Part shown: piece by piece, positions 1,419-49,836 of the stretch
How the letters are laid out: every line of letters starts with the position of its first letter
Position numbering within the stretch: the first letter of the stretch is position 1
Translations under genes and position numbers: made by a program
Source: a virus
Taxonomy: Duplodnaviria > Heunggongvirae > Uroviricota > Caudoviricetes
IMG/VR virus record: IMGVR_UViG_2563366803_000005
Span: 1-49,836 of that record
Length of the DNA stretch: 49,836 bases
Direction: 5' to 3' (one strand)
Notes under the pieces: model-generated
The model's input: only the letters and a program-made list of their open reading frames with translations
What the model was told of the DNA's origin: nothing
Databases searched by the model: none

Positions 1419-3857
1419 TTAAAAATCAGCCTGACTCGGGATCAGTTTTTGCCAGATAACTGAAACGTATTTTGCCTGGTAACGGGCGTCATCAAGTGCA
1501 TTATGGCGCTCACCTTCGAATGGAATAGCCGTTCTGGCATCGAAGTCTATGGCTTTCCCCAGCTCAACGATTGTGCGTACATCTCGATCGTTGTAGTAAC
1601 GCCACGGGCAGGGGATCCCCTGCCGTTCGTATGAACGGCGCAAAATCGTGTTGTCGAAGTTGGCTCCATTTCCCCAGACCTGAACAAAAAATTCACCGGA
1701 GTTTTCGTCGATAAATTCCCGCAATTGTAACAGTGCATCATCTAACGGGATTTCATCGGTCATAATGGCAGATTGCGCTTCGCGTGATTGCTTAAGCCAC
1801 CATTTAATGGTGTCCCGATCAATGACCCCGCCAGCAGTTTCCAGATCGATAGTCTTACTAAATTCCGGTCCCATATCTCCGGTTTGCGGATCGAAAAATA
1901 TTGCACCTATTGAGATGATCGGGGCATCAGGATTTTTTCCCATGGTTTCAAGGTCGATCATTAGATGGTCACACGTCCTGCTGGTGGATGTGATAACGTG
2001 ATGACCGTTCACCGTAATTAAGGGATCTGCCGTCTCGCCAGTTTCACTATCGCTGGCGTGATCCTGAGCGCTGCCAGCATTCTCCTTGTGTGGATGTTCA
2101 GCGCCTTCCATTTCCTTCGGATCATTTTCCTGAACTTCAACCTGATTCTCTTCATCGAATGTTTCCTGGTATGTTGCGTCGCCCATCACCGCGCCACAAT
2201 CAGGGCAGTTGCCGCCGCCGGTCTGACCGCAGGCTGTGCAGATCTTTTCCGGTTCCTGTTGCACTACTGGTTCAGGTTGTTTCGTTTCTGGCTCGTTTTG
2301 TAACGCATTTGGGCTGTTTTGTTCCGCTTTCTGGTCGTTCTGTTCCGATTCTTGCTGGTTCTGGTTTACAGAATCGCGGGTTTCAATCCCCTTTACCCAT
2401 TTCGGATCATTCGGGTCGCTAATCCCTGCAACAAATTCTCCGCGAGAGGCAGCAAGCAACTTATCGGCGTCAGGCTGGCTGATATTGGCTGCCTGCATAA
2501 TTTTGTTTACTTCGTCAGCGGTAACTTTTACCTGTGACTTGTCATCCAGCGGCTGCGGGTCCTGATGATGTTCAACTGTATCCGCTGCCATTGTTTCAGC
2601 CGTTGCCTGTTCATCTGCCATTGCGCCAGATGGTTGCGGGTTATCTTCATCATTTTTTTCTTCTTCTGTTTTGCACTCAGCAGCCAGTCCGCCGTTAATT
2701 TCTTCCAGGATATCTTTTTCCGGTGTATGCCGGGCAGCCATGAGCGTTTCAGCTGTGGGATTCTCGTGATCAGTTTCTGTCAGGTTGGCATTGATATACC
2801 CCTGAAGGCGCCCCGGGTAGTGATAAAACTCAGGGTGGGCGCTTCGGATAAGTGCAAAAATAGCTGCGCGGGAATAGTCCAGGATACCAGGGGTTGCGCG
2901 AAGTGCTGCGGACCATTCCCTGAACGGACTTTCTTTTTTCAGGACGATTTCTTTTGCGCGACGATAAACGCTGCCCGGAATTTCATAAATATTAAAATCC
3001 ATCGGAAGTGTGGCTGCTGCAATCTCCACATCCAGCGCATCGAAGGTGTGTACTAAATTCGGATTGCGATCGGTTTTGTTCCCGCCACCGGCATTTGCAC
3101 CGGAAGCCGTACGGGTGATACGCGAAACACGATTTCCTTTCATCCACTCTTTTGTCAGCAGACCCCGATCAGTGTAATCAGCGTCCAGGTATGCCTCGAA
3201 AAAAGCAGTTATCAGTCCCAGGTCTGAATTACCGGGATTAGGGAAAACTTTGTCAGTGTCGCGTACCAGTTTGTGAAGGTCGCGAATCTCCAGCGGGTCG
3301 AGCAGCTTTGTTTTGTGAGAAATGGCCAGGGCAGTAACAGCCGGCAGTTCTTCCGCCCGTGCTATATGTAATGCCTGAAGTTCTTCCCGTGCAACGTGCG
3401 TTACTGGTTTTTCGCTGCTGTGTTGCGCAAGCCAGCGAATGGGCAGCTCCTGACCAGAAACCGGCAGGAGCATATTCTCCTCAATCTCCGTCATGTCTTC
3501 GCCGTTGACGTTGGTATTGTCAGTACTGGCTGGTTTCTCCTGCACGGAGGGAGAGGGCGCGATAAATACCATTGTAATGCCATCTTCCCCGCCTTTTTCG
3601 TATCGGTTGCAGAATTCGGTATCAAACACGCCTTCAGGTGGAAGGTCATTCACAACGGGTAAATGGACGCGAACGGGTTTTTTAAAGTCGTCTTCATCAT
3701 AATCGTTGTCATCCATTGCGGTAATGCAGCGGGAGATGGCAACAGATAATTTTTTTGCTGTAGTCCAGTAAAAACCACCTTTAATTCCCAGACGTTTTCT
3801 GACTTTGTCATTTTTTGCTTCGCAATATAGCGCAAATTCTTCTTTATCAGTGCTCAT
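1419..3857 (-). CDS. Large phage exonuclease with C-terminal DnaQ-like (DEDDh) 3'-5' exonuclease domain
   Basis: 812 aa. C-terminal about 180 aa has DEDDh motifs (…MIDLETMG…, …[13 protein letters not shown]…, …[10 protein letters not shown]…). Middle is an acidic Q/E-rich low-complexity segment with a CxxC-x7-CxxC zinc ribbon ([16 protein letters not shown]). N-terminal domain unassigned. Confidence 0.75.
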
Positions 3858-43738: not shown

Positions 43739-44338
43739 ATGCGTAAAGTTTGTGCAGCCATTTTGTCCGCAGCCATCTGTCTGTCCGTATCCGGTGCGCC
43801 TGCATGGGCGTCTGAACATCAGTCCACACTGAGCGCGGGGTATCTTCATGCCCGTACGAACGCTCCCGGCAGCGATAATCTGAACGGGATTAACGTGAAA
43901 TACCGTTATGAGTTTACGGACGCGCTGGGGCTGATTACGTCCTTCAGTTATGCCAATGCTGAGGATGAGCAAAAAACGCACTACAGCGATACCCGCTGGC
44001 ATGAAGATTCCGAGCGTAACCGCTGGTTCAGCGTGATGGCAGGGCCGTCTGTACGCGTGAATGAATGGTTCAGCGCGTATGCGATGGCGGGTGTGGCTTA
44101 CAGCCGTGTGTCGACTTTCTCCGGGGATTATCTCCGCGTAACTGACAACAAGGGGAAAACGCACGATGTGCTGACCGGAAGTGATGACGGTCGCCACAGC
44201 AACACGTCTCTGGCGTGGGGGGCTGGCGTGCAGTTTAACCCGACCGAATCCGTAACCATTGACCTTGCTTATGAAGGTTCCGGTAGTGGCGACTGGCGAA
44301 CGGATGCATTTATTGTTGGTATCGGATACCGTTTCTGA
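43739..44338 (+). CDS. lom: Outer-membrane protein Lom (Ail/PagC/Lom family)
   Basis: 199 aa; signal peptide and beta-barrel pattern ending …IVGIGYRF. Confidence 0.85.
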   Translation: MRKVCAAILSAAICLSVSGAPAWASEHQSTLSAGYLHARTNAPGSDNLNGINVKYRYEFTDALGLITSFSYANAEDEQKTHYSDTRWHEDSERNRWFSVMAGPSVRVNEWFSAYAMAGVAYSRVSTFSGDYLRVTDNKGKTHDVLTGSDDGRHSNTSLAWGAGVQFNPTESVTIDLAYEGSGSGDWRTDAFIVGIGYRF

Positions 44339-45200: not shown

Positions 45201-48200
45201 ATGACAGTAAAAATTTCTGGCGTGCTTAAAGATGGCACAGGAAAACCAGTACAGAACTGCACCATTGTGCTGAAGGCCAGACGAACCAGCAGCACGGTGG
45301 TGGTGAACACGGTGGCCTCTGAAAATCCGGATGAAGCCGGACGTTACAGCATGGATGTTGAGCATGGCCAGTACAGCGTCACCCTGCTGGTTGAAGGTTT
45401 TCCGCCTTCACATGCCGGGACCATTACCGTCTATGAAGGTTCCAGACCAGGTACGCTGAATGATTTTCTCGGTGCCATGACGGAGGATGATGTCCGACCG
45501 GAGGCACTGCGCCGCTTTGAGCAGATGGTGGAAGAGGTGTCACGTAACGCCTCCGCGGTTGCACAGAATACGGCAGCCGCGAAAAAATCAGCCAGCGAGG
45601 CGGCAACTCATGCAACCGATGCTGCAGCCTCAGCACGTGCCGCCAGCACGTCAGCCGGACAGGCCGCGTCGTCGGCTCAGTCAGCGTCTTCCAGCGCAGG
45701 AACGGCATCGACAAAGGCCCGTGAAGCAGCAAAAAGTGCTGCTGCTGCAGAGTCATCAAAAAGCGCGGCAGCTACCAGCGCCAGTGCCGCGAAAACGTCA
45801 GAAACGAATGCCGCAGCATCACAAAAATCGGCAGCCACTTCTGCATCCACAGCGACCACGAAGGCGTCAGAAGCTGCCACCTCGGCACGGGGTGCGGCGG
45901 CCTCAAAAGAGGCAGCGAAATCTTCAGAAACGAATGCATCATCAAGTGCCAGTAGTGCAGCTTCCTCGGCAACGGCGGCAGGAAATTCCGCGAAGGCGGC
46001 AAAAACGTCCGAGACGAACGCTAAGTCTTCTGAAACAGCAGCGGGACAGAGCGCCTCAGCTGCGGCAGGTTCAAAAACAGCGGCTGCATTATCTGCCAGT
46101 GCCGCGTCAACAAGTGCCGGGCAGGCCTCAGCCAGTGCCACCGCCGCCGGAAAATCGGCAGAAAGCGCCGCATCATCCGCTTCAACAGCCACAACGAAAG
46201 CTGGCAAAGCCACTGAGCAAGCCACTGCAGCAGCGAGGTCTGCTTCTGCAGCAAAAACCTCTGAAACAAATGCAAAGACTTCAGCAGACAATGCTGCTTC
46301 CTCTAAGGCGGCAGCCGCATCGTCAGCCAGTTCAGCGGCGTCATCGGCATCATCTGCGTCTGCTTCAAAAGATGAGGCGACCAGACAAGCGTCAGCAGCG
46401 AAAGGTAGTGCCACGACAGCAACAACGAAAGCATCAGAGGCGGCAGGCAGTGCGACGGCTGCATCTCAGAGCAAAGTTGCTGCTGAATCCGCGGCAACGC
46501 GCGCCGAGACAGCAGCAAAACGGGCAGAGGATATTGCATCCGCCGTGGCGCTGGAGGATGCGAGCACGACGAAAAAGGGGATAGTACAGCTCAGCAGTGC
46601 AACAAACAGCACCAGTGAAAAGCTGGCGGCAACGCCAAAGGCAGTTAAAACTGTTAAAGATAGTTCAGTTCAAAAAACTGGCGACACAATGGGAGGGCAG
46701 TTAAAAATCAGCACGATAAATGCTCTTCGAATATTCAACCAAGCCTTTGGCCTTATTTTTAGGCGTTCCGAAGATCATCTTCATCTTATTCCGACTAATG
46801 AAGGGGAGGGGGAAAATGGAGACATCGGTTCATTAAGACCATTCTCTATAAACTTAAGATCAGGGTTGGTGTCCATCGGTAATGGACTAAAAGTTGGTGG
46901 TAGTGTTACTGGTAATTTGACCGGAAACGCAGATACTGCGACCAAGATCAAGACAGCACGTAAGATTGGGGGCGTGGCATTTGATGGATCGGCAGATATC
47001 AACTTGCCTGGAGTCAACGCTACCGGTAATCAAAACACTACAGGTAATGCTGCGACCGCCACGAAACTTCAGGCAGCCAGAACGATTAACGGTGTGTCAT
47101 TTGATGGTAGTGCAAATATCACATTGACCCCTTCAAATATTGGGGCATTGGCATTAACTGGAGGGACTCTTTCAGGTGGTTTAACTGCTGCTGGTGAGGT
47201 TATTTCAAGGTCAGCAAATGGTCTGCGTATTGCCTATGGCAACTATGGATTCTTTATCCGAAATGATGGATCAAACACATATTTTATGTTGACAGATTCG
47301 GGTAACAGTCTTGGTACGCACAATAGCTTAAGGCCGTTTATAATTAGTAACCATACTGGCAATGTTACAATTGCAACTAAATTAAACGCGAGTGGTGGTA
47401 TCACTGGATCTTTATCGGGTAATGCAAGCACAGCAACCAAATTGCAAACTGCAAGGACAATTAACGGCGTAAAATTTGACGGCTCGGCAAATATTGAAGC
47501 GTTTCCGCCAGGTGTTCCGCTGCCGTGGCCATCAGATACACCACCTGCAGGTTATGCGATCATGCAGGGGCAGACGTTTGATAAGGCAGCATATCCGAAA
47601 CTGGCTATTGCCTATCCTTCAGGTGTTATTCCAGATATGCGCGGCTGGACAATCAAGGGCAAACCCGCTAGTGGCCGGGCCGTATTGTCTCAGGAACAGG
47701 ACGGCATAAAATCGCACACCCACAGCGCCAGCGCATCCAGTACGGATTTGGGGACGAAAACCACATCGTCGTTTGATTACGGCACTAAATCCACGAATAA
47801 CACCGGGGCGCATACGCACAGTCTGAGTGGCTCTACGGGGTCTGCCGGTGTTCATACTCATGGTAATGGTATTCGTTGGCCAGGAGGCGGCGGTTCTGCG
47901 TTAGCATTTTATGATGGCGGTGGGTTCACTTATGTCCAGAATTCACAGTATCAAGTAAGCCCGGAGACTTCTTCCTATAGATCGTATTATCAACGTATTC
48001 AGACACAGTCAGCAGGTGCTCATACCCACTCGCTGTCTGGTACTGCAGCAAGTTCTGGCGCACATGCACATACTGTAGGTATTGGTGCGCATACGCACTC
48101 CGTTGCGATTGGTTCACATGGACACACCATCACCGTTAACGCTGCGGGTAACGCGGAAAACACCGTCAAAAACATCGCATTTAACTATATTGTGAGGCTT

Positions 48201-48206
48201 GCATAA
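45201..48206 (+). CDS. stf: Side tail fibre protein (lambda Stf-like)
   Basis: 1001 aa from ATG 45201 ([26 protein letters not shown]…). Long Ala/Ser/Thr-rich repeat region (…AAKTSETNA…) and C-terminal GAHTHS-type repeats ending …[11 protein letters not shown]. Confidence 0.85.
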
Positions 48207-48790
48207 TGGCATTCAGAATGAGTGAACAAGCACGGACCATAAAAATTTATAATCTGCTGGCCGGAACTAATGAATTTATTGGTGAAGGTGACGCATATAT
48301 TCCGCCTCATACAGGTCTGCCAGCAAACAGTACCGATATTGCACCACCAGATATTCCTGCTGGCTTTGTGGCTGTTTTCAACAGTGATGAGGCATCGTGG
48401 CATCTCGTTGAAGACCATCGGGGTAAAACGGTTTATGACGTAGCGTCAGGGGACGAGTTATTTATTTCTGAACTCGGTCCGTTACCGGAAAATGTTACCT
48501 GGTTATCGCCGGAAGGGGAGTTTCAGAAGTGGAACGGCACAGCCTGGGTGAAGGATACGGAAGCAGAAAAACTGTTCCGGATCCGGGAGGCGGAAGAAAC
48601 AAAAAACAACCTGATGCAGGTAGCCAGTGAGCATATTGCGCCGCTTCAGGATGCTGCAGATCTGGAAATTGCAACGGAGGAAGAAACCTCATTGCTGGAA
48701 GCCTGGAAAAAGTATCGGGTGTTGCTGAACCGTGTTGATACATCAACTGCACCTGATATTGAGTGGCCTACGAACCCTGTCAGGGAGTAA
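48206..48790 (+). CDS. tfa: Tail fibre assembly protein (Tfa)
   Basis: 194 aa; ATG overlaps the stf stop; Tfa-like C-terminus (…[45 protein letters not shown]…). Confidence 0.85.
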
Positions 48791-48844
48791 TCATTGGGAT
48801 TATGCCGCAGCACGTCTTAAGCAAGAACGTGCTGCGGTTGGATG

Positions 48845-49513
48845 CTATTTTTTCCCTGAAGCGGAAAACATTACTACAGTACCTTGAACCTTGGTTTTAA
48901 CATTCTCGAAATGCTCTGAGAGTATATGTGTTAAGCCTTCTTCGGAATCTTTTGTGTTTGAAAAGATGCCTTTCTGATTGTAAATGCGCATCAGTTTTTG
49001 ACCGAAGCTATTGTGCACAACTCCATCGCCAAGAATTGTGGCTCCGTATAGAGTTCCATCGTCAGTTAAGGCCTGCGCCGCATTGCGTATTACACAGCTT
49101 TTTGTAGATATATTTCCAGGCAGGCAGTGAAGAAGGTAAAACATGGAAATGGAATCAAATTGACCATGTAACGCCGCGGGATAAGGTTCAAAAACATCAT
49201 GGCTAATTTTATGTTTAATTTTTGATTCCCCAGCCCTTGTAGATGCCGCGTTCAGGCTAGCTTCGTTCAAATCCATTAAAGATATCAGACTACTCTCAGG
49301 TACGTGAGTAAGGTAAAACCCAGTTCCAACACCAATATCCAGATGGTTGTTACCTACATGTTCCAGAAAGTGTGGAAGAAGGTGTTCCTTTGTAGGACAT
49401 CCCCATGCAAGCCGATTTGATACTCCCAAAACCCACCAGTCATAAAGCTTTAGGGTAAGTGGTGTGTAAATTTTAGCCCCATCATCTGTGTTTTTTTTCA
49501 TTGATTTCACCAT
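48845..49513 (-). CDS. Class I SAM-dependent methyltransferase (cargo gene)
   Basis: 222 aa (or start at MKKNTDD, 49501). Motif I LDIGVGTGFY, post-I acidic residue (…ISLMDLNEASL), motif II-like DSISMFYLLHCLP. AT-rich; opposite strand to the tail genes. Confidence 0.65.
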   Translation of the reverse strand: MVKSMKKNTDDGAKIYTPLTLKLYDWWVLGVSNRLAWGCPTKEHLLPHFLEHVGNNHLDIGVGTGFYLTHVPESSLISLMDLNEASLNAASTRAGESKIKHKISHDVFEPYPAALHGQFDSISMFYLLHCLPGNISTKSCVIRNAAQALTDDGTLYGATILGDGVVHNSFGQKLMRIYNQKGIFSNTKDSEEGLTHILSEHFENVKTKVQGTVVMFSASGKK

Positions 49514-49569
49514 GTTATAGTTTTATTTGTGAATTAAATCAATTATGGCGATGAATTACAAGGGGTTAA

Positions 49570-49836
49570 ATGCTGCCGCAGCATAGCGATATTGAAATAG
49601 CCTGGTATGCTTCGATACAGCAGGAGCCGAATGACTGGAAGACCGTCACCACACAGTTCCACATCCAGGAATTCAGTGAATATATTGCGCCACTGCAGGA
49701 TGCTGTAGATCTGGAAATCGCAACGGCGGAAGAAAGATCGTTGCTGGAGGCATGGAATAAATATCGGGTATTGTTGAATCGTGTTGATACATCAACTGCA
49801 CCTGATATTGAGTGGCCGACTTCACCTGCAGAGTAA
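49570..49836 (+). CDS. Tfa C-terminal-domain paralogue (truncated tail-fibre assembly gene)
   Basis: 88 aa with its own RBS (ACAAGGGG); C-terminal about 50 aa roughly 85% identical to the Tfa C-terminus at 48206-48790. Confidence 0.45.
49685..49836 (+). repeat. ~150-bp direct repeat of the tfa 3' end (partner of 48640-48790)
   Basis: GCC(G/A)CT(T/G)CAGGATGCTG…GTTGATACATCAACTGCACCTGATATTGAGTGGCC…; flanks the methyltransferase gene. Confidence 0.6.

Follow-up and report, generated by a model that had tools for sequence, protein, structure and literature searches.

We examined the right-hand end of a 49,836-nucleotide (nt) stretch of viral DNA (IMG/VR record IMGVR_UViG_2563366803_000005, positions 1 to 49,836; hereafter the window), which is the tail-fibre end of a lambda-like prophage and contains ybcY, a gene for an S-adenosylmethionine (SAM)-dependent methyltransferase. 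The first element of the locus is the full-length tail-fibre assembly gene tfa (48206–48790, plus strand, 194 amino acids), whose product matches Caudo_TAP (PF02413) with 151.5 bits and also phrog_105. Its codons 137–191 (48614–48778, plus strand), encoding the conserved C-terminal helical domain, form the left member of a pair of direct repeats. A stable hairpin that is common to lambda (48804–48838) lies directly 3′ of the tfa stop codon and is followed, on the minus strand, by ybcY (48845–49513), an open reading frame (ORF) of 222 codons for a class I SAM-dependent methyltransferase. The spacer upstream of ybcY harbors a sigma-70 promoter motif, TTGATT-17-TATAAC (49542–49514, minus strand), which is a candidate promoter for the gene. 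Finally, a small chimeric ORF of 88 amino acids (49570–49836, plus strand), which extends to the last nucleotide of the window, consists of a 5′ part from an unrelated small phage gene (phrog_3893; 49570–49662, plus strand) and a 3′ part that encodes a Tfa C-terminal domain and is the equivalent of K-12 tfaX (49663–49836, plus strand). This 3′ part holds the right direct repeat (49663–49827, plus strand). Each repeat contains a copy of an identical 38-bp core (48731–48768 and 49780–49817, both plus strand), which is the crossover interval in alleles that lack the cassette. The prophage has a short b region, which makes up the final 1.2 kb of the window and runs from the tail-fibre genes to the right attachment site beside the host gene potB; the sequence between ybcY and potB is phage-derived. 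At 41.1%, the G+C content of ybcY is below that of tfa (48.0%) and of the window overall (51.4%), in agreement with an earlier reading made from the letters of the window alone (the sequence-only reading), which had described an AT-rich minus-strand gene.

The locus is already known and is nothing new in kind, being the intact form of tfaD–ybcY–tfaX (b0561-b0563) in the Escherichia coli K-12 prophage DLP12, where the gene order is tfaD, ybcY (a pseudogene on the minus strand), tfaX, appY and ompT. Window positions 48352–49816 are 96.7% identical to K-12 DLP12 and the two ybcY genes share 99.0% DNA identity; gene order, orientation and the ybcY promoter motif are the same. K-12 differs in having a ybcY pseudogene, which is shorter by 2 nt over the aligned stretch, and a TfaX of 61 amino acids, whereas both ORFs are intact in the window. 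The surroundings also differ: the window has a full-length tfa after stf and carries the block at that end of its 50-kb prophage which is next to potB, while in K-12 DLP12 the block lies beside appY and ompT. Existing annotations cover both ORFs, as "class I SAM-dependent methyltransferase" in RefSeq and as phrog_2132 and phrog_2341 in PHROGs, and the methyltransferase is annotated as YbcY in PhiR26_1.

A repeat search returned one long direct repeat, 48614–48771 and 49663–49820, which extends over 158 nt with 86% identity and no gaps. BLAST lengthened the match to 180 nt at 84% identity, and a protein-guided alignment paired 55 in-frame codons (48614–48778 with 49663–49827). Upstream of ~48614 and ~49663 the in-register identity is that of background. 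The sequence-only reading had reported direct repeats of about 150 bp with roughly 85% identity that flank the methyltransferase gene and derive from tfa 3′ ends. Its length, identity and orientation hold, but its 5′ boundaries, 48640 and 49685, were placed about 25 nt too far to the right. The derivation from tfa is borne out by the Caudo_TAP profile and the protein-guided alignment, in which both repeats encode the conserved Tfa C-terminal domain: the left repeat closes a Tfa of full length, which matches Caudo_TAP positions 1–130 of 131, while in the right repeat the match is limited to positions 75–131 of 131. A passage of PMC9608196, citing North et al. 2019, describes the C-terminal helical domain of Tfa, the segment repeated here, as conserved and the N-terminal domain as variable and fibre-specific. 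The two repeats differ at 14% of their bases and the ratio of non-synonymous to synonymous substitution rates (dN/dS) between them is 0.20, so the copies diverged within working tfa genes of different phages. Over 48108–48839 the window shares 94% identity with lambda, from the end of stf through tfa to the hairpin, and a donor search found no full-length tfa in the phage collection with a 3′ end of the right-copy type at more than ~90% identity.

Two other origins of the repeats were considered and rejected. Recent local duplication is ruled out by the divergence and dN/dS of the copies, and an invertible fibre segment is ruled out by the direct, not inverted, arrangement of the two tfa ends. 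We also observed that Rfam RF02111 ('IS009', a candidate E. coli small RNA that is prophage-associated) matches 48549–48747 over its full model with 225.2 bits, above its gathering score of 117, and matches 49593–49796 in the right-hand region with 106.6 bits, below that score. Both matches fall within tfa-type coding sequence, and the family appears to model conserved tfa 3′ sequence.

The ORF at the right-hand end had been taken for a truncated tfa paralogue. This is correct for its 3′ part, which is tfa-derived, but not for its first ~31 codons, so that the ORF is better described as a chimera. No tfa homology is found in register in the 5′ part; phrog_3893 aligns to residues 3–37, and a 79-amino-acid ORF of Klebsiella phages has an N-terminus that shares 50% identity with residues 2–37. 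Judged by these alignments, the ORF is a fusion made through a non-homologous joint at ~49662/49663, in which the first ~31 codons come from a phrog_3893-type gene. The whole fusion is covered by phrog_2341 at full length. As a Tfa protein it fails, with the N-terminal fibre-binding domain absent and Caudo_TAP positions 75–131 alone matched, and elsewhere it is seen in decay: K-12 TfaX ends at a premature stop after 61 amino acids, 7 nt are deleted in 2G7b, the tail is a different one in PhiR26_1, and just 32 amino acids are left in Ayreon. The 88-amino-acid ORF is a recombination scar and no working tail-fibre chaperone.

The prophages that have an uninterrupted tfa provided one view of the cassette boundary. 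A synthetic query representing the deletion product gave a single contiguous match, that is, a tfa without the cassette, in 47 E. coli genomes. Two of these, O104:H4 and E2348/69, were inspected, and both have the arrangement stf–tfa–232 nt–potB at the same potB site. The O104:H4 tfa allele is of the left-copy type at 21/21 diagnostic sites up to 48730 and of the right-copy type at every diagnostic site from 49818 to the end of the ORF, and its 232-nt downstream flank also matches. The switch from left to right lies within the 38-bp core shared without a mismatch by the two repeats, the pattern expected of homologous recombination between tfa ends. Phages carrying the block give a second view. 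Although the fibre genes of 2G7b and Ayreon are different, a tfa 3′ stub is present to the left of the block in both, beginning at 48670 and 48645, respectively. On the right-hand side, homology to the window ends at 49656 in Ayreon, which is the fusion joint, at 49794 in PhiR26_1, 2G7b and ev243, and at 49816 in K-12, the latter two positions being inside the core. Thus, the proposal of the sequence-only reading that the cassette was acquired by recombination between tail-fibre assembly genes is supported, on the comparison of these alleles, as far as the boundary is concerned: recombination between tfa 3′ ends marks it, with gain and loss of the cassette indistinguishable. The O104:H4 event could be a loss, between the two repeats of one genome, or equally a gain, if a phage with the cassette took part in an exchange.

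We further observed that Ayreon (3239–3587) has lost the body of ybcY (window 48881–49539) and retains, besides the tfa 3′ stub and the hairpin, the final 36 nt of the gene together with the promoter spacer. This arrangement indicates a second route of loss, a microhomology deletion of ybcY between 48880 and 49540 with a 4-nt overlap.

The signals around ybcY were analyzed on both sides of the gene. The TTGATT-17-TATAAC motif is the same as the constitutive RpoD promoter listed for K-12 ybcY, and flagged as H-NS bound, in genomic systematic evolution of ligands by exponential enrichment (SELEX) data (PMC3946193). We predict that ybcY is transcribed leftward from this sigma-70 promoter of its own. 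The true start codon is probably that of M5 of the window ORF (ATG at 49501–49499), which would yield a product of 218 amino acids, because all 32 aligned homologues have their first residue at this position and phrog_2132 has 218 positions. At the other end of the gene, the 83-nt segment 48788–48870, which includes the hairpin, has a folding energy of -32.2 kcal/mol (z = -4.6) on the plus strand and -28.7 kcal/mol (z = -3.9) on the minus strand. Conserved in lambda, K-12, 2G7b and Ayreon, this hairpin is probably a terminator that separates the late operon from the cargo gene read leftward. A scan for consensus terminators, which needs a T-run right after the stem, did not pass the hairpin and found no terminator for ybcY.

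The explanation that we favor, to which we assign a probability of roughly 0.78 as a whole, is that the locus is a mobile block bounded by tfa ends, that ybcY is its cargo and encodes an enzyme with a small or lipid-like substrate, and that the 88-amino-acid ORF is the scar. The conserved block would comprise the tfa 3′ end, the hairpin, ybcY, the promoter spacer and the chimeric ORF with its phrog_3893 5′ end and tfa 3′ end. Its origin would be a non-homologous joint that linked a small phage gene to the middle of a tfa from another phage. Homologous recombination at the C-terminal coding ends of tfa would then move the block among phages with different fibre modules, and the same recombination could remove it and restore one hybrid tfa, the direction of each event being a matter of interpretation. 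In the lysogen, the ybcY transcript would run leftward from its own sigma-70 promoter and end at the hairpin after tfa, and YbcY would, as its predicted fold suggests, most likely methylate a small or lipid-like metabolite and not DNA. Several observations weigh against parts of this scheme. With J, lom and stf only 85–92% identical to those of the window, the O104:H4 prophage is no simple deletion derivative of the window prophage, which leaves gain and loss indistinguishable. The hairpin, the only candidate terminator for ybcY, has no T-run on the minus strand. The leader from the SELEX promoter to M5 would span ~6–8 nt, which is unusual. In addition, the K-12 spacer is reported to be H-NS bound, and by analogy ybcY may be largely silent in the lysogen.

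The best-surviving alternative, which we nevertheless consider unlikely, is that the tfa ends are the fossil of a past replacement of the fibre module and had no role in moving ybcY, which would simply be the first b-region gene of the incoming phage. This would suit the non-homologous joint by which the right copy adjoins a phrog_3893-type gene at its 5′ edge, as well as the decay of the chimeric ORF in other genomes and the extent of divergence between the repeats, which hence come from two different phages. Against it stand the cassette-less tfa alleles at the same potB site, which switch copies exactly within the 38-bp identical core, and the way in which homology to several other phages and to K-12 stops inside the two tfa-derived segments, at 48645, 48670, 49794 and 49816. 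Ongoing homologous exchange at these segments predicts both observations.

YbcY is a stand-alone class I SAM-dependent methyltransferase, as had been deduced from its motif I, LDIGVGTG. This motif corresponds to residues 58–65, of which D59, G61, G63, T64 and G65 are unchanged in 33 aligned sequences, and the invariant residues D81 and D106 and the FDS motif (residues 119–121) are consistent with SAM binding. Pfam matches exceed their cut-offs for Methyltransf_12 (37.5 bits; cut-off 30), Methyltransf_23 (29; 27), Methyltransf_25 (27.7; 27) and Methyltransf_11 (24.6; 21.2), and phrog_2132 aligns over positions 1–218 of 218 to residues 5–222 with 521 bits. An AlphaFold2 model calculated from the 33-sequence alignment has a predicted local distance difference test (pLDDT) score of 89.8; a single-sequence run gave an unusable model with a pLDDT of 32.8. 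The predicted fold has alternating beta and alpha elements and superimposes on solved class I enzymes. Profile and structure searches for the methyltransferase family thus led to Methyltransf_12/23/25/11, phrog_2132 and a fold of the small-molecule or lipid type.

In the model, the fold of YbcY resembles that of small-molecule and lipid methyltransferases and not that of DNA methylases. The class I enzymes to which it is similar include PmtA (8ys9, a bacterial phosphatidylethanolamine N-methyltransferase), juvenile hormone acid methyltransferase (JHAMT; 7ec0), DhpI (3ou2) and Coq5 (4obw), with sequence identities of just 12–21%. A PDB sequence search gave marginal matches to JHAMT and UbiG (E ~1e-3), and a BFVD viral fold search returned generic methyltransferases and nothing else. 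Among NCBIfam profiles, the matches to CpaM, RquA and PmtA were far under their cut-offs and no family-specific profile reached its cut-off; PADLOC gave nothing meaningful. The YbcY family has strongly conserved motifs, YDWWVL, AWxCxT, LLHCLPG and YNxKGIFSN, for which no tie to a characterised enzyme emerged in this analysis, and the literature on ybcY and tfaX yielded no functional study, only promoter and regulator SELEX tables and descriptions of the locus. We judge it somewhat better than an even bet that YbcY is expressed from the prophage as a methyltransferase for a small molecule or lipid, as opposed to an enzyme with a protein or nucleic-acid substrate. A more specific and tentative idea is that YbcY acts in lysogenic conversion, methylating a small metabolite of the host such as a lipid or a quinone, or detoxifying a xenobiotic, and thereby helps the lysogen or alters its susceptibility to other phages. 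If true, this would explain why a dispensable cargo gene is kept at at least 98% identity in 70% of E. coli genomes and why ybcY recurs in cargo-bearing, prophage-associated islands of other enterobacteria.

It is very improbable that YbcY is instead a DNA (or RNA) methyltransferase that protects phage DNA against restriction or places a mark on the DNA of the host. The DNA-methylase motifs (D/N/S)PP(Y/F/W), PC and ENV are found neither in the YbcY sequence nor in conserved columns of the alignment, no Pfam DNA-methylase family matches YbcY, and a target-recognition domain and a DNA-methylase-like structure were also not found.

We place just as little weight on a functional product of the 88-amino-acid ORF, for example a free Tfa C-terminal trimerisation domain by which competing phages would be disturbed in assembling their fibres. 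In its favor, the window has an unbroken ORF that starts with an ATG of its own and is matched by phrog_2341 over its full length, and a passage of PMC9608196 describes the Tfa C-terminal domain as a trimerisation module; against it are the missing fibre-binding domain and the decay of the ORF in other phages and in K-12.

The last alternative, that the methyltransferase gene is a host housekeeping gene just outside the prophage, can be set aside: distant homologues (56–65% identity) are indeed ordinary stand-alone chromosomal genes in Salmonella and Enterobacter, and most E. coli genomes (70%) carry ybcY, but the gene lies inside sequenced phage genomes at 99.4–100% identity, has tfa-derived phage DNA on both sides, occupies up to 4 places per genome and is absent from other prophages at the potB site. 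The phage genomes concerned include PhiR26_1, 2G7b and ev243, in which ybcY is located between tfa and the int/attachment-site end. After the block, both 2G7b and PhiR26_1 have a hydrolase gene and ompT, and in 2G7b int is next. A comparison with lambda gives the same picture. Homology extends through tfa and the hairpin to 48839, after which lambda has ea47, its first b-region gene, and the window has the 3′ end of ybcY. Hence ybcY is phage cargo and not host DNA, as the sequence-only reading had held; a conserved housekeeping gene beside the prophage end is not what was found, since ybcY is inside phage genomes and phage-derived DNA follows it before potB.

YbcY homologues with 64–90% identity were observed in cargo-bearing islands with phage-associated genes in Citrobacter, E. 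albertii and C. freundii, where the neighbours are sodC, dinI, SopA-like, cdtA and OspG-kinase-like genes. This context suggests that the YbcY family is a recurrent prophage passenger beside virulence-associated cargo. Taken together with the more distant chromosomal homologues, it makes capture of the phage ybcY from an enterobacterial chromosome probable, as judged from sequence relationships.

The locus can be compared with several known arrangements. In its position directly after tfa and the hairpin, ybcY is likewise the counterpart of ea47 in the lambda b region. Morons are extra, separately transcribed cargo genes located between conserved phage genes, as known from the literature of Hendrix and Juhala. 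With morons ybcY shares its orientation opposite to the late genes, its lower G+C content, a promoter motif of its own and its absence from related prophages at the same site. It differs from them in that homologous tfa segments bracket it, which enables exchange or loss, and in that a dedicated terminator is not evident. Tail-fibre modules are said, in papers by Haggård-Ljungquist and Sandmeier from the 1990s, to be exchanged through the conserved 3′ end of tfa-type genes. As in the exchange of such modules in lambda, P2, Mu, P1 and defective prophages, the repeat in the window is the conserved Tfa C-terminal domain and the breakpoints are within it. Unlike invertible fibre segments, in which the conserved segments are inverted, those of the window are direct and bracket a cargo gene that is not a fibre gene. 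The locus provides a clean natural case in which the C-terminal coding segment of tfa serves as a homologous "handle" for the gain and loss of cargo beside a tail-fibre module.

In 5,426 complete E. coli genomes, ybcY was detected in 3,799 (70%), always with at least 98% identity and in 1–4 copies each. The left junction, formed by the tfa end, the hairpin and the ybcY end, is present in 3,074 E. coli genomes and the right junction in 3,437, and the whole block from the stf end through tfa and ybcY to tfaX is present in 1,495. The full ybcY gene is also found in 14 sequenced phage genomes. YbcY is among the most widespread E. coli prophage cargo genes without an assigned substrate and may for this reason be of biochemical interest.

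To the left of the block lie lom (43739–44338), an IS200 copy between lom and stf, and stf itself (45150/45201–48206). In the N-terminal half of stf, positions 45576–46280 contain a diverged family of 33-nt repeats that encode an Ala/Ser/Thr-rich region, and this region varies in length among the related prophages compared, in which stf encodes 930–1025 amino acids.

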